From the IMG/VR virus record IMGVR_UViG_3300037961_004224, positions 1-64,000 of that record: a stretch of 64,000 nt of DNA; one strand, given 5' to 3'. The position numbers and the translations under genes were made by a program. The notes beneath the pieces are model-generated. The model made no database searches. It was not told the origin of the DNA and saw only the letters and a list, made by a program, of their open reading frames with translations. Positions 18,481-52,921 of the stretch are shown one piece after another. The DNA comes from a virus. Within the stretch, counting starts at the first letter, position 1. Every line of letters begins with the position of its first letter.

Positions 18481-19169
18481 TGGGAAGCAATGCTGGACCT
18501 GATATAGTTGAAGATGGACTGGTCCTTTGCTTGGACGCAGCTAATGATCGAAGTTATCCGGGTGCGGGGACTACGTGGACTGATCTTGCAGGAAACAATA
18601 ATGGCACATTACACAATAGCCCCACCTTTGACACCGCGAATGCCGGTAGTATTGTATTTGATGGCACTAATGATCGCGTAGCAATATCACTAGGAAGTTT
18701 GCCAACACCTCAAAATTCTACTAATTTTACTTACGAGGCAGTTGTAAAGTTTGACTCGCTTGGATCGAGGACGATATTTTCTCAAGAGGCCGGATCGGGT
18801 ACTGGTAGAATATTTCTTGGAGTGCATACTAATTCTAAACTCGTTACTTTTATAACTGGATCTGCCGAACAACCAGATTTTTCCGCATTGAGTACGGGTA
18901 CAATATATCATGTCGCTCTCATAGTATCTCAGACACAATTAATGCTGGAACCATCAATAGCTATTGCTTTGAATGGCGTGGTGGATAGTATCGCTTCAAC
19001 CGTTATCGGCTACACTGGAACTGGAGACATTAATATCGGCACAGAACCCGGTGCTGGTGGGGGTTTCTTAGACGGAAATGTTCTTACTGTTAGAATTTAT
19101 AATCGTCCTTTAGGTGAGAAGGAATTATTTCAAAACTATAGAGCTATAAAAGGAAGATATCAACTATGA
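18480..19169 (+). CDS. LamG/concanavalin A-like virion protein 3
   Basis: DGLVLCLDAANDRSYPGAGTTWTD, IVFDGTND, RIYNRPL...NYRAIKGRY. Confidence 0.85.
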   Translation: MGSNAGPDIVEDGLVLCLDAANDRSYPGAGTTWTDLAGNNNGTLHNSPTFDTANAGSIVFDGTNDRVAISLGSLPTPQNSTNFTYEAVVKFDSLGSRTIFSQEAGSGTGRIFLGVHTNSKLVTFITGSAEQPDFSALSTGTIYHVALIVSQTQLMLEPSIAIALNGVVDSIASTVIGYTGTGDINIGTEPGAGGGFLDGNVLTVRIYNRPLGEKELFQNYRAIKGRYQL

Positions 19170-20398
19170 AAAGAAGAGATTTTATAAAGTTAGGAGTAGG
19201 TACATATGCATTCGGAAATGTTACAGCGACTATCGCAGACGATAAGCAGACTGACGATCCAGCAGTATTGTTCCTTTTTCTTGGTGGTGGGGCTAGTCAT
19301 ATTGAGACTTTTAATCCTATACCTCTTGCTCCTGCTGACAGGAGATCTGTAACTGGCGATATAAAAACAAATGTTGCTGGAATAGAATTGGGTGGTCTTT
19401 TTAAAGAGCTTTCAAAACGCACAAATAAAATAGTTATACCTAGAGCTTTTGGTCACAGAGATCAAAATCACGCATCTGCCGTTCATTGGGTTGTAACTGG
19501 AGAAGCAAATTTTGGTGCTGGAACAAGTTCTAAATGGCCTAGCTATGGATCTATGATGAGCAAACATCATGGTGTAAATACAGACGATGGACTTCCTACA
19601 TATGTAAAACTAGGAAAGTATGACCATAATGGTGCAGCTTGGTTAGGCGGTAAATATACTGGGTTCGATGCAACCAAAGAGGGTAGAAAAGACCTACAAC
19701 TCATGCGTAAAAGTGAAGATTTTAAAACAAGAATTAATGTTTTAAATGTCATAGACAATAGTTTTAAAGCAAAAGATCAACAATTGGCTAAGGACTGGAG
19801 AGATTTACGTAATCAATCAGTAGATATTATTCTTGGAAATGGATCAAAGGCATTCAGGGTAGAAGAAGATAAAGATTACAATAAATTTAAAGAAGCTACA
19901 CTTGGACAAGATGCACTTACTGCAATTAGATTGCTAGAAGCTGGCTCTAAATTTGTATCATTAAGCTATGGAGGCTGGGATATGCACCAAAATATTGGCC
20001 AGTCACTCCAGACAAAACAAGCAGAGCTAGATCATTACTTAGCAAAAATAATGGATACTTTAGAATCAAGAGGTCTATATGAAAGAGTGATGCTAATTGT
20101 AACATCTGAATTTGGAAGAACGCCTAAAGTAAACCAAAATCAAGGTCGTGATCATTTTGGCAAACTAGCACCCCTCATGATTAGTTGTGGATCATATGAA
20201 ATGGGAAGAACGATTGGGTCGTCAAGTCCAAATGCAGACGATGTTGAAGATGGTCGCTGCACTCCAGAAGATTTAGCTTGGACTATATACGATCATCTTA
20301 ATATGAATAGAGCATCTAGATATACAGCAACAGACGGCAGGCCGCACAATATAGTAAAAGATGATGCTAAAAATATATTAAAAGATATTCAAGCGTGA
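19166..20398 (+). CDS. DUF1501 family protein with twin-arginine signal
   Basis: MKRRDFIK Tat motif; FLFLGGGASHIETFNP, WPSYGS, GGWDMH, TSEFGRTP, GRDHF, TPEDL. Confidence 0.88.
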   Translation: MKRRDFIKLGVGTYAFGNVTATIADDKQTDDPAVLFLFLGGGASHIETFNPIPLAPADRRSVTGDIKTNVAGIELGGLFKELSKRTNKIVIPRAFGHRDQNHASAVHWVVTGEANFGAGTSSKWPSYGSMMSKHHGVNTDDGLPTYVKLGKYDHNGAAWLGGKYTGFDATKEGRKDLQLMRKSEDFKTRINVLNVIDNSFKAKDQQLAKDWRDLRNQSVDIILGNGSKAFRVEEDKDYNKFKEATLGQDALTAIRLLEAGSKFVSLSYGGWDMHQNIGQSLQTKQAELDHYLAKIMDTLESRGLYERVMLIVTSEFGRTPKVNQNQGRDHFGKLAPLMISCGSYEMGRTIGSSSPNADDVEDGRCTPEDLAWTIYDHLNMNRASRYTATDGRPHNIVKDDAKNILKDIQA

Positions 20399-20461
20399 TC
20401 TTAATAATTGCAAGCACTGTGCAAGCAAATTTTATATTATTTTAAAATTGGAGGTTTTAAG

Positions 20462-20608
20462 ATGCGATTATTTAACGGGCCATTAGGTCAATTTATTAAA
20501 AAGCATAGATTGATTAGACGAACCGCATTCTTTGGCGGCTTGGCAGTCGGTGTATACTTTATTGGTGTTGCTGCTGGTTGGTGGCCAAATGTATTAGCTG
20601 GAGGCTAA
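20462..20608 (+). CDS. small membrane peptide
   Basis: GGAGG RBS; basic N-terminus followed by one TM helix. Confidence 0.6.
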   Translation: MRLFNGPLGQFIKKHRLIRRTAFFGGLAVGVYFIGVAAGWWPNVLAGG

Positions 20609-20615
20609 TGATCAC

Positions 20616-20642
20616 GGGGAGATGGATTCTCCCCATTTTTTT
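20616..20642 (+). terminator. rho-independent terminator
   Basis: GGGGAGA/TCTCCCC stem plus T-run. Confidence 0.8.
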
Positions 20643-20690
20643 AATAGTTGTATTAGCTTAATTAGCTTTGTCAACTAGAATGGGGTTGAA

Positions 20691-21254
20691 ATGCTTGTGA
20701 TAAAAATATTTATGTGTGTTATACTGGCAGACTTTATAACTGGCTTAGTACACTGGATAGAAGATACATATGGCGTACCTGACTGGCCTTTTGGGTTAGG
20801 AAAGAATGTAGTAGAACCTAATATTATTCATCATCAACATCCTAATTGGATGATAACAATGAGTAATGCAATACAAAGAAACTACATTACAGCTATCCCA
20901 GCATCCATAGCAATTTTTATTGCTTACTATTTTTATGGATGGTCATGTTGGCCTTTTGCAACAACAATTTTAATCGCTGGTTTTCTAGGCAATGAAATTC
21001 ATGGTTGGAATCATACGCCTATCTCAAAACTCAACTGGTTTATAAAATTTTTGCAAGATACTGCTATAGTACAAACTAGACATCAACATGCACTTCATCA
21101 TAAAAAGCCATACAATAAATATTATTGTACAATAACAAATTTAACAAATCCAGTGCTAGAGCTTATCTATTTTTGGAGAACACTTGAATTTTTACTATTA
21201 AAAATATTTGGATTAAAAACAAAAAGATGTACGGAGGTTAGGAACGGTTATTAA
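20691..21254 (+). CDS. CarF/TMEM189(PEDS1)/FAD4-family lipid desaturase
   Basis: ADFITGLVHWIEDTYG, IHHQHP, EIHGWNH, HALHHKKP...YYCTIT..TNPVL...FW..LE match the family His pattern; TM helices present. Confidence 0.85.
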   Translation: MLVIKIFMCVILADFITGLVHWIEDTYGVPDWPFGLGKNVVEPNIIHHQHPNWMITMSNAIQRNYITAIPASIAIFIAYYFYGWSCWPFATTILIAGFLGNEIHGWNHTPISKLNWFIKFLQDTAIVQTRHQHALHHKKPYNKYYCTITNLTNPVLELIYFWRTLEFLLLKIFGLKTKRCTEVRNGY

Positions 21255-21280
21255 ACACTAAAACACGAAAGGGGTTTAAG

Positions 21281-21772
21281 ATGTCGTTAATTATCAGACT
21301 AATTATTTTGGGAGTTGTCATAATGGGTTGTTGTGGAGGTTCATGTCATGGTGACAGAAATCTAGATGAATATATTTCACTTTCTGGAAAATCTGCATTA
21401 TTGTCAAAACAAGAGGACGATAGTGAAGATAAGGAAGTAAAATATAAAGAGGGGGACGTAATTGTTATGCAGTTTAGTGCTGTATGGTGTGGTCCCTGTA
21501 GAGCGTTAAAAGCATCAATTAAATCAGATGCAGAAATACAAAATTATTTTAAAAAAGAAACTAAGGGTTATTTTATAGTAGATGTTGATGATAAGGACAA
21601 AACATCTGCTGCTTGGGTAAAAAAAGCAAAACCTAGTTCCATACCTCTTGTTGTTTTATATAAAAGAGAAAAAGATTCATGGAATGAAGTTAGCAGATTT
21701 ACTGGATCAAAACCACCAAGTGCAGTACTAAAATGGCTTAAAGAAAAGAACAAGAAGTCACCAGTAAAATAG
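21281..21772 (+). CDS. exported/membrane thioredoxin
   Basis: FSAVWCGPC active site; hydrophobic N-terminal signal ending in Cys. Confidence 0.85.
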   Translation: MSLIIRLIILGVVIMGCCGGSCHGDRNLDEYISLSGKSALLSKQEDDSEDKEVKYKEGDVIVMQFSAVWCGPCRALKASIKSDAEIQNYFKKETKGYFIVDVDDKDKTSAAWVKKAKPSSIPLVVLYKREKDSWNEVSRFTGSKPPSAVLKWLKEKNKKSPVK

Positions 21773-22077: not shown

Positions 22078-22269
22078 ATGAGATGTTCAGAATGTGATAA
22101 AGAAATAAGTTGTGAAGAAAGCTTTAGATGTAGAATATGTTTTCTTTGGTTTTGTAAAAGCTGTTCTTTAAAACATTTTGGACTAAAAGAAAAGGATGGT
22201 AAAATCTACCACAAGAGTATTATTAAAAGCTTTTGGTGGATTTTGCAAAAAAGATTTTTCGGTAAATGA
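22078..22269 (+). CDS. small zinc-finger protein
   Basis: CSEC...C...CRIC..WFCKSC...H. Confidence 0.6.
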   Translation: MRCSECDKEISCEESFRCRICFLWFCKSCSLKHFGLKEKDGKIYHKSIIKSFWWILQKRFFGK

Positions 22270-22580
22270 AATATTCAAGGAAGAGATTTATGATTAAAAC
22301 ACTAAGCTTAATGTTTTGTTTGGTACTTCCCACGCTAGATAACTCTATATGGGGAGATGCTATAACAGACCAAGAAAAATGCCAAGCGGAAGCAGACTAT
22401 ATGATTAAGTATCACAAAAACTGTCATGTTGGTCCGTGTATCGGAAGATTTGAAGGTATGGGGTATAGTGTTAATGGAAAAATTCCAAACACCTGTGTGC
22501 CAAATCGTAAAATGAAACTTACAGGCGATGCTACTGCCAGAGATGGCAATAGAGTAGCTAGAGTAAGAAGCTGGAGGTAA
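22266..22580 (+). CDS. small secreted Cys-rich protein
   Basis: Signal-like N-terminus; HVG.CIGRFEG.G...TC.P...LTGDA...RVRSWR. Confidence 0.6.
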   Translation: MKYSRKRFMIKTLSLMFCLVLPTLDNSIWGDAITDQEKCQAEADYMIKYHKNCHVGPCIGRFEGMGYSVNGKIPNTCVPNRKMKLTGDATARDGNRVARVRSWR

Positions 22581-22581
22581 A

Positions 22582-22827
22582 GCATGTATAAAGATTATTA
22601 TTGATGTTGTAGGAGACTGCGGGGCAGTACCGCACACCTCCACTTGCCAAACTAAGGGGGTGAAATAGATTCGATCCACAATATGATGTAGTATATCTCA
22701 TGCACTGGTTGATAGAAGGGCCAGTATAAAAATCTATCAAACTTTTAATTGCAGATGAAAATCTTGCTTTGGCAGCGTAAGCTGTCTGGGGTTTGCCAGT
22801 ACCTTATTATCCAAACTGGCATTTTTT
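22582..22827 (+). ncRNA. ssrA: circularly permuted (two-piece) tmRNA, tag peptide (A)ADENLALAA
   Basis: Acceptor piece first: T-arm TGCGG-GGCAGTA-CCGCA (22618-34), CACCTCC-A (22635-42). Coding piece starts GGGGGTG (22656-62), giving G3:U70. P2 TCC-ACAATAT/ATGTTGT-A-GGA. pk1 ACTGG/CCAGT + TTGATAGA/TCTATCAA. Tag GCA GAT GAA AAT CTT GCT TTG GCA GCG TAA (22751-80). Confidence 0.95.
22794..22827 (+). terminator. terminator ending tmRNA coding piece
   Basis: TGCCAGT/ACTGGCA stem plus T6. Confidence 0.7.
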
Positions 22828-23419: not shown

Positions 23420-24508
23420 TTGAAGAAGATTAATTTGAATGTCCCCATAAATTCTTTAGGATATGGAGTTGTGGGGTATAATGTATGGAAAGAATTGAAT
23501 AGCTTAAATGATAAGCTTGATGTAACGCTCTGGCCAATACCAGATGTTCAAAATATAGTTCCTCCTGTAGAATTGAGTGAAGAAGAAACATATCAGCTAC
23601 GAATTGATATTAATAAACAATCGAACTTACAACACGATGCAACATGTCTAAAAATATGGCATGAAAACCAACTAGAATACAGGGTTGGTAAAGGAAAGTT
23701 TATTGCTTGGCCTTTCTTTGAGGTAAACAAACTAGACAACAGAAGGTTGACACATCTTAAATCAGCAGATGAAATTATTGTATCGTCCGAGTGGGCTAAA
23801 GATATCCTATATAATGTGCCCGATTGGACATCACCGGCTGTTCATGTGGTAGAATGTGGTGTTGACAGAGAAATATTTAATGAAACAGGCTCTTTAAACA
23901 ATACAGAAAAATGTATATTTTTTAATTGTGGAAAATGGGAAGTAAGAAAAGGGCATGATGTTTTACACAAAGCATTCAAGGACGCTTTTTCTTCAAATGA
24001 AAATGTAGAACTTTGGATGATGACCCATAATCCATTTTTAAACGAACAAGAGAAAGCTTATTGGGAGTCTCTTTATGAAGACAGCAGAATCAAAAATATT
24101 CAAAGGGTTCAATATCAGCATCAGCTTTCTGAGATAATGAAACAAACTTATTGTGGTGTTTTTCCGGCAAAATCAGAAGGCTGGAATCTTGAAGCACTTG
24201 AGATGATGGCTTGTGGCAAACAAGTTATAATAACAGATTATTCAGCACATACTCAGTTTTGCAATGTACAAAATTCTAAATTGATAGATATAACAGAAGA
24301 GGAGCCTGCTTATGATGCAAAATGGTTCACCGGGGATAATGGAACTTGGGCATCCTTAGAAGGAAGCTCATATGAACAGCTTGTTCAACATCTAAGAGAT
24401 GTTTACGAGCAATGGAAAACAAAACCAGAAATAAATCAATCTGGAATTGAAACTAGTAAAAATTTAACTTGGCAAAAAACTGCCGAAAAGCTATTAGAAA
24501 TTATTTGA
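23420..24508 (+). CDS. glycosyltransferase GT4-like
   Basis: GKWEVRKGHD, FPAKSEGWNLEALEMMACG, TWQKTAEKL. Confidence 0.88.
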   Translation: MKKINLNVPINSLGYGVVGYNVWKELNSLNDKLDVTLWPIPDVQNIVPPVELSEEETYQLRIDINKQSNLQHDATCLKIWHENQLEYRVGKGKFIAWPFFEVNKLDNRRLTHLKSADEIIVSSEWAKDILYNVPDWTSPAVHVVECGVDREIFNETGSLNNTEKCIFFNCGKWEVRKGHDVLHKAFKDAFSSNENVELWMMTHNPFLNEQEKAYWESLYEDSRIKNIQRVQYQHQLSEIMKQTYCGVFPAKSEGWNLEALEMMACGKQVIITDYSAHTQFCNVQNSKLIDITEEEPAYDAKWFTGDNGTWASLEGSSYEQLVQHLRDVYEQWKTKPEINQSGIETSKNLTWQKTAEKLLEII

Positions 24509-47001: not shown

Positions 47002-48090
47002 ATGGGTATTCCAATAGTATACTTTAGAAGTAGTTCTTTTAATTGCCACAGAACTTGTCCCATGCAATTTTATACAGAGTATGTGCTGGGACTTAGAGGG
47101 TTAGGTAATAAGAAAGCAGATAAAGGTACAATAACCCATAAAATACTTGAGATAACAGCACTTTGTAAAAAGGCATCCCAAGACGGTATTAAAGTTATTG
47201 ATGATGAAGATATTGGTGAAGTTTTTACCGATAACTATGACCCTGAATATTTAAATTCTATAGGTATCAGGGTTTATGAATACTACAAAAATATATTTAA
47301 TTACCACAAAGGGAAAAATGCTTGGAGAGATAGAGACTTTGAAGACTGCATGGGCTGGGCTTGGAAGGCTCTGAAATACAAAGATGGCATGTACGACCCA
47401 AGAAAAAGAAATGTTGTAGATGCAGAGCCACATTTTGATTTTGAAATACAAAAAGAATGGGCCAAATATGATTACCCAGAGTATGATTTAAAGGGCTACT
47501 TATCATTGAAGGGTACTATTGATTTAGTGGCAGATATTGGGGACGGTGTGTATGAAGTGATTGACTGGAAAACAGGACAAAGAAAAGACTGGGCTACAGG
47601 TAAAGAGTATAATCAAGGAAATTTATTTAATAATCCACAGCTTAGAATGTATCATTACGCATGTAAGAAGCTTTACCCTCAAGCTCACACGTTTCTAATG
47701 ACCATTTACTTTATAAATACTGGCGGTCCATTCACTGTACATTTCCAAGACTCTGACTTAGAGCAGACAGAAGAGATTTTGAAAAAAAGATTTGAAGAGA
47801 TAAGAAATACAGATCAGCCAAATATTCTACCAAGAATAAGACCTAAAGATAGTTGGAAATGCAGAACAATGTGTGATGCTGGAAAGACTACATTTCAAGG
47901 AACGAACATTGAGCCAATTAAAGAACATCGTCCCGGACAAAGAACAAAGTATGGGGAAGTCATGAGCAAATGCGAACAGGTCAGATACATGATAAAATTA
48001 AAAGGAATTGATTGGGTGACTAACAATTACATGTCACCGGGGCATACTATTGGAAGATACGGTTCTGGTGGGGGAAAGGTTCAGGATTGA
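47002..48090 (+). CDS. PD-(D/E)XK RecB/Cas4-like exonuclease
   Basis: CHRTCP, KGTITH, GTIDL, VIDWKTG, QLRMY, C-terminal CRTMC. Confidence 0.85.
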   Translation: MGIPIVYFRSSSFNCHRTCPMQFYTEYVLGLRGLGNKKADKGTITHKILEITALCKKASQDGIKVIDDEDIGEVFTDNYDPEYLNSIGIRVYEYYKNIFNYHKGKNAWRDRDFEDCMGWAWKALKYKDGMYDPRKRNVVDAEPHFDFEIQKEWAKYDYPEYDLKGYLSLKGTIDLVADIGDGVYEVIDWKTGQRKDWATGKEYNQGNLFNNPQLRMYHYACKKLYPQAHTFLMTIYFINTGGPFTVHFQDSDLEQTEEILKKRFEEIRNTDQPNILPRIRPKDSWKCRTMCDAGKTTFQGTNIEPIKEHRPGQRTKYGEVMSKCEQVRYMIKLKGIDWVTNNYMSPGHTIGRYGSGGGKVQD

Positions 48091-49979
48091 TGAGATATAC
48101 TCCGCTACACGTTCATTCAGAATACAGCCTTCTTGATGGCCTAAGCAAATGTGAAGATATAGCAAAAAGATTGGAAGTTATAGGTTCTAATGCTTGTGCA
48201 TTGACAGATCATGGTTCAGTTTCTGGTGCTGTTGACTTTTCTAAACAAGCCAAATCTAATGGTATGCGTCCTCTATTGGGGTGTGAGCTTTATGTTTGTC
48301 CTGATGGGCAGGCAACAAACAGAACTAAAGAAAATAGCAAACTAGTACATCAACCCGTTATAGCAAAAAACTTTAAAGGATGGAAAGATCTACTAAAGAT
48401 AGTTTCTTCATCAAACAAAAAAGAGCATTTTTATCATAAGCCCAGAATAGACATGGAAATTATGTCTGAGGTGGCAAGCAATAAAAATTTAATTTGTTTC
48501 AGTGGTCATCTAGGATCAGTGTTGTCAAATGCTATTTGTAATGGAGATGAGCTTGACCCAGATTGGATGAAAAAGGGAAAAGCTATGGCAGAAAGACTTA
48601 GGTCGATGTTTGGCAAGGAAAACTTTTTTATTGAAATACAACTAATAGATTCTAGAATAAATACATTTGCAGCAACTGTCTCCGGTGCATTAAGAGATAT
48701 TTCAAAGGCCACTAAGATACCCTGTGTAGCAACTCCAGACGCACATTACTGCTCTAGGGAAGATGCAGAGGATCAACGTGTACTCTTATGTACGTACTTT
48801 AAAAAGAATATATCTCAGATACAAAGAGAAATAAAACAAGGGACCGCAAATCAATCATTAATAACATTTTTTAAATCAGATAATTACCACATACCTTCAT
48901 ATGAAGATATGAAAGAATTTCATACAGATGAAGAACTACAAAACACAAATCTTATAGTTGATATGTGTGAAGATTATGATATTCTTAAATCACCAGAACC
49001 ACCTCAATTTGTTTGTCCAGATGGGATGTCTCCAGAAGAGTATCTCAGGAAACTTAACAGAGATGGCTGGAATAGAAAAATGCGTCATGTTGAAAAAAAT
49101 AGTGATGAGTTTATTGAATATGGTAAAAGGGTAAATAATGAGCTTGATGTCTTTACTTCTATTGGGCTTTCTAGCTATTTTCTTATTGTCGATGACATTC
49201 TTAATTTCGTTAGAAGCAAGGGATATATTACCGGCCCCGGAAGAGGTTCTGCTGCTGGTTGTATGGTTTCTAATCTACTGGGCATTACTCAGGTAGATCC
49301 AGTACCTTATAATCTTATCTTTGAAAGATTTTACAATGCAGGCAGAAATGCTCCCGGTAAAATATCTTGGCCTGATATTGACTTTGATATACCAAAAGCT
49401 GCTAGAGAAGAAACAATCGAATACATTAAAAGTAAATATGGAGAAGAGTGTGTTGCACAAATACAAACATTCCAAACACTAAAGGGAAAAGCTTCATTAA
49501 CAAGAGTAATGGGTGCTCGTGGCAATATCTCATTTGACGAACAAAAAGCTATTACAAAGTGCTTGCAAGATGAAGCAAAGGTATCTGATGAACTTAAAGA
49601 TATTGAAGAAGAATATGGATATTCATCTAGCATTTTATGGGCACTTGAAAATACACCCGATAAACTAAAACAGTGGTGTCATATAGGAAAAGAAGGAAAG
49701 CTAGAAGGAAGGCTTGCAAAAATATTTGAGCAAGCGATTAGGATTGAGCATACAAAAATTATTGCAGGCACACATGCTGCTGGTATTGTTATTTCGAGTA
49801 ACCCCATTAGTGATTCATGCCCTATGGTATTAGACAGTAAAGGGAAAAGTTATCGTGCTGGATTTGACGGCCCTAGCTGCGAAGATTCAGGGCTACTTAA
49901 ACTTGATTGTCTTGCAATTCGCGGATTAGATAAGGTAATGGATGTGGTTAATATAGTTGGTGGTGAAGACCTATGCTAA
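48087..49979 (+). CDS. dnaE: DNA polymerase III alpha, N-terminal part (PHP + palm)
   Basis: HVHSEYSLLDG, LTDHG, DAHY, GRGSAAG, FERFYN, PDIDFD, HAAGIVI, LLKLDCL. Confidence 0.93.
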   Translation: MMRYTPLHVHSEYSLLDGLSKCEDIAKRLEVIGSNACALTDHGSVSGAVDFSKQAKSNGMRPLLGCELYVCPDGQATNRTKENSKLVHQPVIAKNFKGWKDLLKIVSSSNKKEHFYHKPRIDMEIMSEVASNKNLICFSGHLGSVLSNAICNGDELDPDWMKKGKAMAERLRSMFGKENFFIEIQLIDSRINTFAATVSGALRDISKATKIPCVATPDAHYCSREDAEDQRVLLCTYFKKNISQIQREIKQGTANQSLITFFKSDNYHIPSYEDMKEFHTDEELQNTNLIVDMCEDYDILKSPEPPQFVCPDGMSPEEYLRKLNRDGWNRKMRHVEKNSDEFIEYGKRVNNELDVFTSIGLSSYFLIVDDILNFVRSKGYITGPGRGSAAGCMVSNLLGITQVDPVPYNLIFERFYNAGRNAPGKISWPDIDFDIPKAAREETIEYIKSKYGEECVAQIQTFQTLKGKASLTRVMGARGNISFDEQKAITKCLQDEAKVSDELKDIEEEYGYSSSILWALENTPDKLKQWCHIGKEGKLEGRLAKIFEQAIRIEHTKIIAGTHAAGIVISSNPISDSCPMVLDSKGKSYRAGFDGPSCEDSGLLKLDCLAIRGLDKVMDVVNIVGGEDLC

Positions 49980-50965: not shown

Positions 50966-51294
50966 TGTATGAATATAATGCTAAAGTTGATCGTGTTGTT
51001 GATGGAGACACTGTAGACTTTATTGTTGATCTTGGATTTAATATCAATATAAAGATCAGGACTAGACTGATTGGTGTTGACACACCAGAAAGAGGACATC
51101 CAGACTGGAAAAAGGCAACAGCCGAATGTGCAAGATTGCTTTCTTCTGTAGCAGATATTCACAGTGCTTCTATTGGAAAACCAGAACACTGGGTAAAAAT
51201 AAAAACAACGAAAACAGGGAAATATGGTCGTTGGCTTGTAGAAGTTGATGGTGTAACAGATAAATTAGCAGAGACTTGGCCCTATGAAAAATAA
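50965..51294 (+). CDS. thermonuclease (SNase)-like protein
   Basis: RVVDGDTVD, RLIGVDTPE, GKYGRWL. Confidence 0.85.
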   Translation: MYEYNAKVDRVVDGDTVDFIVDLGFNINIKIRTRLIGVDTPERGHPDWKKATAECARLLSSVADIHSASIGKPEHWVKIKTTKTGKYGRWLVEVDGVTDKLAETWPYEK

Positions 51295-52921
51295 CTATAT
51301 TGAGTTCCCATGTGGTTGTAAGTTTGAAAAAAACTCAAAAGGTCTTCCAATATTCAATCCTAACATTGAAGCACTGCCATTGCATTGTGAAAGAACTTGG
51401 GATATGATTTGCGAAGGGAATACCAAGGGTGTATTTCAGCTTGAATCTCAACTCGGTCAAAGCAAAGCAAAAGAAGTAAAGCCAAGAAGTATAGAAGAAC
51501 TATCAGATCTGATTGCAATCATCAGGCCGGGGTGTGGTGATGCAATTGTAGACGGTAAATCTCTTACCCAGCACTATATTGATCGTAAAGCAGGAAGAGA
51601 TGATGTCAAATACTTTGATCCCAGACTAAAACCAATATTAGAACCAACTTATGGAATCTTGGTATATCAAGAACAAGCTATGCAAATAGCACAACTGGTT
51701 GCTAATTTTTCTTTAGGACAAGCAGATAATCTTCGTAAGGCTATTGGTAAAAAGAATGTTGATCTTATGGCCAAGGTAAAGAAAGAATTTTTAGAAGGTG
51801 CTATTGCTCAAGGAAACTTTACTGAAAAAGATGCTGAAGAGATTTTTAGTTGGATCGAGAAGTCTCAAAAATACTCGTTTAACAAATCTCACTCAGTAAG
51901 TTACGCACTCAATGGATATCAAACTGCTTATGCCAAAGCCCATTTCCCTAGAGCTTTTTTCACCTCATATCTTCGTCATGCTGATGGTAAACCAAAGCCA
52001 TTTGAAGAAATAAATGAATTAGTAAATAACGCTAGACTTATGGATATAGACGTGCAACCACCTAGCATTGTTAATATGAACTCTAATTTTTGTTTAGTAA
52101 ATAAACTTCCAACATTTGGTCTAGTGAATGTTAAAAGCGTTGGTATGAGTGTGTTTAAGCAAATAGATGCAGTAGTAAAGCAAAATTCATATAATGTGTC
52201 TGATATGGGCTGGGATAAATTTTTAATGAAGGTTGGTAGGTATATTAAAAGTAATTCTTTTGAATCTATGATTAGAGCCGGTGTTTTTGATTGCTACAAG
52301 AAACAAAGAAATAAAATGCTTTATGACTTTAACATATATAAAGAGTTAAAAGATTTTGATAAAGACTATCTTACAAAAACAAAGTGTAAAACATTTGTAG
52401 AAGCTCTTGAAGATTTGATCCCATACATTAAAAAGACTAAAAGAGCTACAGTGCATACGGAAAGACATATTGAGCAAGTTAGAGGGTCAATATCAGCACT
52501 AAAATCCCCACCATATGAATTGATTGACAGGCCAGCTTGGAGGGCAAAGCAAGAGAGAGATTTGCTTGGCGTAGAAATAACATGCTCAGAAGTTGATGAG
52601 TATGATACAACAGATGGAAATTGCAGTTGTAGAGAATATGTAAAAGGTTTTGAATCTAATTACATAGCTATAGCAGCACAAATAAGTGACATTAGAGAAT
52701 GGAAGATCAGGGGCGGAAAACACAAGGGAGAGAAGATGGCATTCTTAAAAATTAGTGACAGTTCTTGTTCGCTTGATAATGTTACTGTTTTTTCAGAAGA
52801 CTGGCAAAAACTAAAAAGTAAAATTGTTATAGGTAAGATATTGCTTCTTAGAGGAAACAGAGATAAAAATCGAGGAAGTTTTTTAGTAAAACAAGCACAA
52901 AACCTAGAACAATGTATATAA
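51284..52921 (+). CDS. dnaE: DNA polymerase III alpha, C-terminal part (fingers/HhH/OB)
   Basis: TKGVFQLES, IRPG, TYGILVYQEQ, ADNLRKAIGKK, YSFNKSHS, C-terminal OB fold MAF..ISD. Confidence 0.93.
   Translation: MKNNYIEFPCGCKFEKNSKGLPIFNPNIEALPLHCERTWDMICEGNTKGVFQLESQLGQSKAKEVKPRSIEELSDLIAIIRPGCGDAIVDGKSLTQHYIDRKAGRDDVKYFDPRLKPILEPTYGILVYQEQAMQIAQLVANFSLGQADNLRKAIGKKNVDLMAKVKKEFLEGAIAQGNFTEKDAEEIFSWIEKSQKYSFNKSHSVSYALNGYQTAYAKAHFPRAFFTSYLRHADGKPKPFEEINELVNNARLMDIDVQPPSIVNMNSNFCLVNKLPTFGLVNVKSVGMSVFKQIDAVVKQNSYNVSDMGWDKFLMKVGRYIKSNSFESMIRAGVFDCYKKQRNKMLYDFNIYKELKDFDKDYLTKTKCKTFVEALEDLIPYIKKTKRATVHTERHIEQVRGSISALKSPPYELIDRPAWRAKQERDLLGVEITCSEVDEYDTTDGNCSCREYVKGFESNYIAIAAQISDIREWKIRGGKHKGEKMAFLKISDSSCSLDNVTVFSEDWQKLKSKIVIGKILLLRGNRDKNRGSFLVKQAQNLEQCI

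Follow-up and report, generated by a model that had tools for sequence, protein, structure and literature searches.

A phage-encoded two-piece tmRNA gene of the alphaproteobacterial type, very probably functional, in an uncultured marine tailed phage

We report that positions 22582-22827 (+) of a 64,000-nucleotide stretch of viral DNA (here called the window) very probably hold a tmRNA gene that is functional, circularly permuted into two pieces, and of the alphaproteobacterial type, in the genome (roughly 130 to 160 kb) of a marine tailed phage that has not been cultured. The window spans the opening 64 kb of an IMG/VR record 126,253 bp long, for which CheckV gives a completeness of 81%. A sequence-only reading had proposed a phage-encoded permuted tmRNA here, with an alanine identity pair and a tag ending in ALAA. 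We found that a covariance model match, covariation, and selection on the tag all agree with this proposal, and that the record encodes a large terminase (TerL) and a major head protein in its other half.

RESULTS

The window gene matches the permuted tmRNA model

In the 64-kb window, tmRNA_permuted (RF04321) matched 22582-22780 at model positions 1-213 with 84.3 bits (gathering score [GA], 47; E, 1e-14). This was the sole match above gathering score in the whole window (Rfam 15), and the earlier assignment to the tmRNA family was upheld by it. The other permuted tmRNA models scored below threshold. alpha_tmRNA (RF01849) reached 47.8 bits, 2 bits short of its GA of 50, and covered model positions 40-278 only, while beta_tmRNA (RF01850) reached 48.3 bits against a GA of 84, and most P2 pairs in that alignment were marked non-canonical. 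The terminal regions of the alpha_tmRNA model (positions 1-39 and 279-355) were unaligned in the window gene and its clade, which instead have a pk2 like that of alpha-type viral tmRNAs. Clade members L002, L005, L007, L008, L089, L091, and L092 pass the alpha_tmRNA GA of 50 (51 to 86 bits).

The layout of the gene is given in Table 1. A check of the sequence located every element that the sequence-only reading had listed where that reading had placed it. The tRNA-like domain has a 7-bp acceptor stem with G3:U70 and a T arm, and it has no anticodon arm. Downstream we found pk1 and then, preceded by UUUUAAUU, the resume codon GCA at 22751, which opens a short frame ending in LAA and a stop codon, as is expected of a tmRNA. 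CCA is not encoded; A22642 is followed by CUU, which supplies just the first C. The unconstrained minimum free energy (MFE) fold of 22582-22827 (-68.7 kcal/mol; z = -2.2) regained P2, the T arm, the acceptor stem, pk1 S1, P5, and the last hairpin.

Table 1. Elements of the two-piece tmRNA gene, with positions in the window
Element	Position	Strand	Sequence or pairing	Basis or remark
Acceptor piece, P2 5' strands	22582..22614	+	outer GCAUG 22582-86; UAUU 22596-99; UGU 22608-10; GGA 22612-14	Rfam alignment, MFE
GAC	22615-17	+	GAC	sequence
T stem	22618-22/22630-34	+	UGCGG/CCGCA	sequence, Rfam
T loop	22623-29	+	GGCAGUA	sequence; alpha_tmRNA consensus GGCgGUA
Acceptor 3' strand	22635-41	+	CACCUCC; discriminator A 22642	
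Intervening spacer	22643..22655	+	13 nt	sequence; would be removed on maturation
Acceptor 5' strand	22656-62	+	GGGGGUG	pairs 7/7 with CACCUCC, G3:U70 included
D-loop analogue	22663-74	+	AAAUAGAUUCGA	sequence, Rfam
Coding piece, 5' part	22656..22703	+	GGGGGUG; D-loop analogue; P2 3' strands UCC, ACA, AGUA, CAUGC	Rfam, covariation, MFE
pk1 (H-type)	22704..22740	+	S1 ACUGG/CCAGU 22704-08/22721-25	
pk1 S2	22709-16/22733-40	+	UUGAUAGA/UCUAUCAA	
Tag frame	22751..22780	+	GCA..UAA; ADENLALAA-stop	9 codons; stop UAA 22778-80
Hairpin P5	22771..22786	+	GGCAGC/GCUGUC 22771-76/22781-86	stop codon in loop
pk2-like second pseudoknot	22788..22821	+	S1 GGGG/CCUU; S2 UGCCAGU/ACUGGCA 22794-800/22815-21	
U6 tract 3' of pk2 S2	22822..22827	+	U6	possible intrinsic terminator in window phage only

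Covariation supports both halves of the structure

Relatives were collected by two routes. Seven viral contigs contain an exact copy of a 19-mer taken from the D-loop region, and all of them matched tmRNA_permuted (7/7). The glycosyltransferase gene adjacent to the tmRNA (23420-24508) has 333 relatives in IMG/VR, and their records yielded further tmRNA copies. We aligned the tRNA-like half of 12 genes using Rfam and MAFFT. For the coding half only, we built a covariance model, R1, and aligned its 23 matches, 18 of them distinct.

Across the 12 genes, the T stem and the acceptor stem are each 100% paired, with 4/5 and 2/7 pairs covarying, respectively, and G3:U70 is invariant (12/12 sequences). 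The inner P2 is 93% paired, and 5/6 of its pairs covary. We checked the outer P2 by hand, MAFFT having displaced that helix by 2 columns in five sequences, and found that it also covaries (GCAUG/CAUGC, ACAUG/CAUGU, GAUUG/CAAUC). An extra P2 segment, AUUG/UGAU, was unsupported in the alignment of 12 genes and was rejected.

In the R1 alignment of the coding half, 95.1% of cells pair and 20 of the 30 pairs have changed on both sides. None of 500 shuffles scored as high, and slid controls paired at 30 to 46%. pk1 S1 is 100% paired with 4/5 pairs compensatory, even though it was left out of R1. pk1 S2 is 98.6% paired (6/8 pairs compensatory), and P5 is 96% paired (three pairs compensatory).

The sequence-only reading had seen only pk1 in this RNA and had taken the last hairpin for a terminator. 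Neither view survived the comparison. All 7/7 pairs of the last hairpin covary, and GGGG/CCUU is 98.5% paired, with changes on one side only. We replaced the terminator-only reading of 22794-22821 with a conserved second pseudoknot, pk2, in which the hairpin is stem 2 and GGGG/CCUU is stem 1; viral genes L325 and L289 share the element. A U run is absent after the last hairpin in most relatives, and so the conserved role of this hairpin is structural. The terminator scan did not call the hairpin because its loop is 14 nt.

Spacers among the relatives measure 5, 13, 17 to 19, 112, or about 590 nt. The 112-nt spacer of L092 (1451-1797, -) holds a leftover tRNA-like T arm and acceptor fragment (AUAGGGUUCGAUUCCCUAUCCCC), and in L091 (1499-1775, +) the acceptor end occurs again (GACCACCUCCACCG) 3' of its first copy, within the spacer. 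In L102 (phage G013), the tmRNA pieces lie at about 2215-2290 and 1453-1625. The spacer of about 590 nt contains a 182-aa endonuclease gene (1616-2164, -; phrog_3322, E 2e-28; HNH/endonuclease VII-like), the stop codon of which falls within GGGGGUGA, where the coding piece begins. A spacer of comparable length is present in L067, whose RF04321 match covers 773 nt. The tmRNA directly adjoins tRNA genes in L005 (5245-5316), L007 (8786-8857), L008 (633-705), and L010 (638-713); neither ARAGORN nor Rfam found tRNA genes in the window's own record.

The tag is conserved as a peptide

Relatives of the window gene encode the tags ADESLALAA, AEETLALAA, and ADASLALAA, and ARAGORN read the same tag frame in six of them. 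Leu and Ala codons differ synonymously among the relatives (CUU/CUC/CUA, UUG/CUU, GCU/GCA). Such changes point to selection on the tag peptide, and this codon pattern indicates that the tag is under purifying selection across the relatives. A C-terminal LAA is a ClpXP signal in E. coli and Caulobacter. Among the sequences examined, the exact tag ADENLALAA occurred in viral contigs only. It had no match in 401 sampled alphaproteobacterial genomes, and thus it was not simply copied from a sampled host.

ARAGORN misses the window copy

ARAGORN, which had been proposed as a check of the sequence-only reading, called no gene in the window or in the whole 126-kb record. Its permuted tmRNA calls include six close relatives and SAR11 genomes; L091, L092, L094, and L095 are missed along with the window. 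We found that the window gene and L092 have in common A22614:U22675, a compensatory A:U in place of the usual G:C of GGAC...UUCGAC. Judging from these motifs, a search that treats the changed position as fixed (GGAGAC...UUCGAU) may explain why the window gene and L092 are missed.

The gene lies in a phage without close cultured relatives

The record has a GC content of about 34%, and nearly all of the window's genes share one strand. Their products include ribonucleotide reductase, DnaB, a split DnaE, a PD-(D/E)XK nuclease, glycosyltransferases, DUF1501, a lipid desaturase, and thioredoxin. The terminase is at most 26% identical to that of any cultured phage and DnaE at most 34%; therefore, the phage has no close cultured relative. 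In blastn searches of phage records, neither the gene (50,697 records searched) nor the related L304 gene had a match.

DnaE (DNA polymerase III alpha) is split into 48087-49979 (PHP and palm) and 51284-52921 (fingers, HhH, and OB), with other genes between. Just upstream of the tmRNA, at 16952-21772, are probable auxiliary genes: three Laminin_G_3 genes, DUF1501 (E 1e-54), a CarF/FAD4-type lipid desaturase (E 9e-40), and thioredoxin. The sequence-only reading had described the surroundings as Planctomycete-like; this description applies to one neighboring gene, DUF1501, which has relatives of the Planctomycetota type, and extends to that gene only. An RNA of the alpha type and a low GC content are compatible with a SAR11-like or other low-GC marine host.

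We found no SmpB, CCA-adding enzyme, or ArfB-type factor in the phage record; the earlier suggestion had been to look for smpB in the rest of the genome. As the record encodes neither SmpB nor a CCA-adding enzyme, the RNA presumably has to use host factors. Pelagibacter genomes contain an enzyme of the CCA-adding type.

Sequence signature and viral relatives of the alpha type

The alpha_tmRNA consensus has the T-loop GGCgGUA and the D-loop GAAAuAGGAUCGAC, and the window gene has GGCAGUA and GAAAUAGAUUCGA. The lineage signature, a GGCRGUA T-loop with an AAAUAG D-loop, is therefore present in the window. We searched for the T-arm and acceptor signature with the pattern GAC-N5-GGCAGTA-N5-CACCTCCA and found it in at least 120 bacterial contigs. 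Among the 120 listed, 94 were Pelagibacterales and 116 were Pseudomonadota, almost all of them Alphaproteobacteria, in line with the earlier statement that permuted tmRNAs with this T-loop are characteristic of Alphaproteobacteria and jakobid mitochondria. The same pattern occurs in at least 120 viral contigs. Two viral alpha-type genes, L304 and L309 (about 130 bits, full length), encode exactly the tag ADENLALAA, and two others, L325 and L289, have a pk2 (GGGGUUUGCCUGUACCUU...AAACAGGCA) close to that of the window gene.

The SAR11 (Pelagibacterales) chromosomal two-piece tmRNA (RF01849) has the same order of pieces, the same T-loop, the acceptor strand CACCUCC, a D-loop beginning AAAUAG, a 9-codon tag, and a short spacer. 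Unlike the window gene with its partial match, these genes align to the full alpha model (210 to 226 bits) and encode CCA. Their tags are ANESYALAA, ANQKFALAA, and ANDKFALAA, and their pk1 is different and smaller. The T-loop of the SsrA of phage Melnitz (see below) is that of the window gene. Because of the T- and D-loops, the distribution of the signature, the likeness to SAR11, the four viral bridges, and the Melnitz T-loop, the sequence comparison makes acquisition of an alpha-type gene more likely than a separate lineage of permutation. The sequence-only reading had left both origins open; the first has gained ground and the second has lost it.

One-piece and two-piece tmRNAs share a locus in related phages

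A tmRNA is present in about half of 50 records of related phages; it is one-piece in 15 and two-piece in about 10. Both related genomes that are at least 90% complete carry one. One-piece tmRNAs of sibling phages were found in L010 (722-1006; RF00023, 107 bits), L015-L018, L031 (542-888), L041 (2211-2554), and L050/L100, with RF00023 scores of 77 to 131 bits. The two forms share one locus, usually upstream of the same glycosyltransferase gene, and on the glycosyltransferase tree they interleave with at least five changes, at least four of which are forced by well-supported branches. The sibling one-piece tmRNAs share with the window gene this locus, 9-codon tags (AESQFAMAA, ANENFALAA), and a similar pk1-tag-P5-pk2 layout. 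They differ in their standard order, an extra pk3/pk4 region, UUCGA-type T-loops, and GG D-loops.

Single segments of these genes have different relationships. Permuted L089 and one-piece L010 have pk1 elements that are 91% identical but different tags and pk2. Members of the permuted clade combine pk1, tag, and pk2 in different ways, and T arms vary among near-identical genes (GGCAGUA, UGCAAUU, UUCGAU). We read these mosaic segment identities as module exchange between phage tmRNA genes. L247 (4021-4456, -) is a one-piece gene (RF00023, 63.6 bits) of standard order that has the alpha-type D-loop GAAAUAG and T-loop GGCAGUA, and it may be a re-permuted gene. The interleaving of the forms at one locus, the pk1 of L089 and L010, and the alpha-type loops of L247 led us to a further reading, which we regard as doubtful: that the tmRNA locus of this family is a recombination hotspot at which T arm, pk1, tag, pk2, and even gene form are exchanged, and that phages may permute and re-permute their tmRNA.

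Alternative explanations

The two-piece order could instead have arisen independently in the phage family from a one-piece phage tmRNA, with alpha-like T- and D-loops that are convergent or were acquired later. R1 scores sibling one-piece tmRNAs at 67 to 91 bits and bacterial alpha tmRNAs at 21.6 bits at most, which would fit such an origin. So would the pk1 shared by L089 and L010, the interleaving of the forms at the glycosyltransferase locus, and L094 and L095, which are permuted and yet have standard-type UUCGAU T-loops and UGG D-loops. However, T-loop, D-loop, tag, and pk2 tie the window gene, via L304, L309, L325, and L289, to full-length alpha-type genes, and L091 matches the leader hairpin of the alpha model. 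The likeness to one-piece tmRNAs is limited to single modules, which recombination explains better. We consider an independent permutation improbable and retain the acquired alpha-type gene as the preferred origin.

The RNA might also be a decoy that binds SmpB or ribosomes without tagging, or the gene a decaying copy. Mycobacteriophage DS6A offers a precedent for a decoy, in that its tag-less tmRNA inhibits the host tmRNA (as recounted in PMC11915505), and both the ARAGORN miss and the missing CCA could be taken as signs of decay. Against this, all helices are intact, and the sole deviation from the motif, A22614:U22675, is compensatory and is shared with L092. The tag frame is likewise intact and appears to be held by purifying selection among the relatives. 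We judge a decoy or pseudogene to be very improbable. Another source could be host DNA, that is, a bacterial ssrA brought in by imprecise prophage excision, left as an att-site remnant, or joined by chimeric assembly; integration often takes place at tmRNA genes (PMC9004378, PMC11915505). The gene is complete, though, and not a 3' fragment. It has phage neighbors on the same strand and the GC content of the surrounding phage genes, it lies upstream of the same glycosyltransferase in most two-piece-bearing related records, and it differs from every sampled bacterial tmRNA. These observations make host DNA an extremely improbable source, and we conclude that the gene belongs to the phage.

DISCUSSION

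Phage two-piece tmRNAs of this type have already been published, and the window gene adds one more. There are 53 two-piece forms among 133 unique phage tmRNAs, mostly marine, in addition to those of Melnitz and the pelagimyophages (PMC9004378). The 2025 tmRNA database has 79 phage entries (PMC11915505). tmRNAs also occur in huge phages (PMC7162821).

The SsrA of Methylophilales phage Melnitz (MZ577097.1 45984-46436; Buchholz et al. 2022, PMC9004378) and the pelagimyophage tmRNAs are, like the window gene, phage encoded, permuted, of the alpha type, and marine. Besides its T-loop, Melnitz SsrA shares with the window gene a G3:U70 acceptor, a pk2-like element after the tag, and a tag ending in ALAA. 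It is annotated at 453 nt, compared with about 246 nt for the window gene, and has a long spacer (13 nt in the window) and a tag of 14 rather than 9 codons. In the window gene, CCA is not encoded, and Rfam gave no glutamine riboswitch match in the window, a further difference from Melnitz. The window phage, with its split DnaE replicase and distant terminase, is not T4-like, unlike Melnitz. The case of Melnitz also demonstrated that the tmRNA of a phage need not match the type of its host (PMC9004378).

The window gene differs from the tmRNA of Caulobacter crescentus, which is bacterial, chromosomal, and larger and works with its own SmpB; the two have no direct sequence relation beyond the family. 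The Caulobacter gene is said to be the experimental prototype, Keiler, Shapiro, and Williams having reportedly found in 2000, in work cited by PMC3968760 and PMC9004378, that it is permuted and that two base-paired RNAs are active in tagging. This two-piece tmRNA reportedly has fewer pseudoknots than one-piece tmRNA.

We propose the following model for the phage RNA. The gene begins 2 nt past the stop codon of ORF 22266-22580, and no sigma-70-like promoter was found just upstream of it; thus, it is probably transcribed together with the upstream genes. Host RNase P would cut 5' of G22656 and free the coding piece, leaving a 13-nt trailer on the acceptor piece. The trailer would be trimmed to A22642, and a host enzyme would add CCA. 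Helix P2 and the acceptor stem would hold the two RNAs together, and host AlaRS would charge the RNA by way of G3:U70. With host SmpB and EF-Tu, the RNA would then enter stalled ribosomes, and translation would resume at the GCA at 22751. According to this model, the nascent chain would gain Ala and ADENLALAA, a degron of the ClpXP type. The likely benefit to the phage would be more ribosome rescue and amino-acid recycling while infection degrades host mRNA.

In practice, ssrA (two-piece) is the appropriate annotation for the gene. ARAGORN can overlook such two-piece genes, given that it missed the window copy while calling six close relatives. As far as sequence comparison can establish, the window gene appears to be a well-documented case of a phage that brings its own ribosome-rescue RNA, in a lineage without a cultured relative. 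Because this phage family has both gene forms at a single locus and shuffles their modules, comparative genomics could provide a test of how permuted RNA genes originated.
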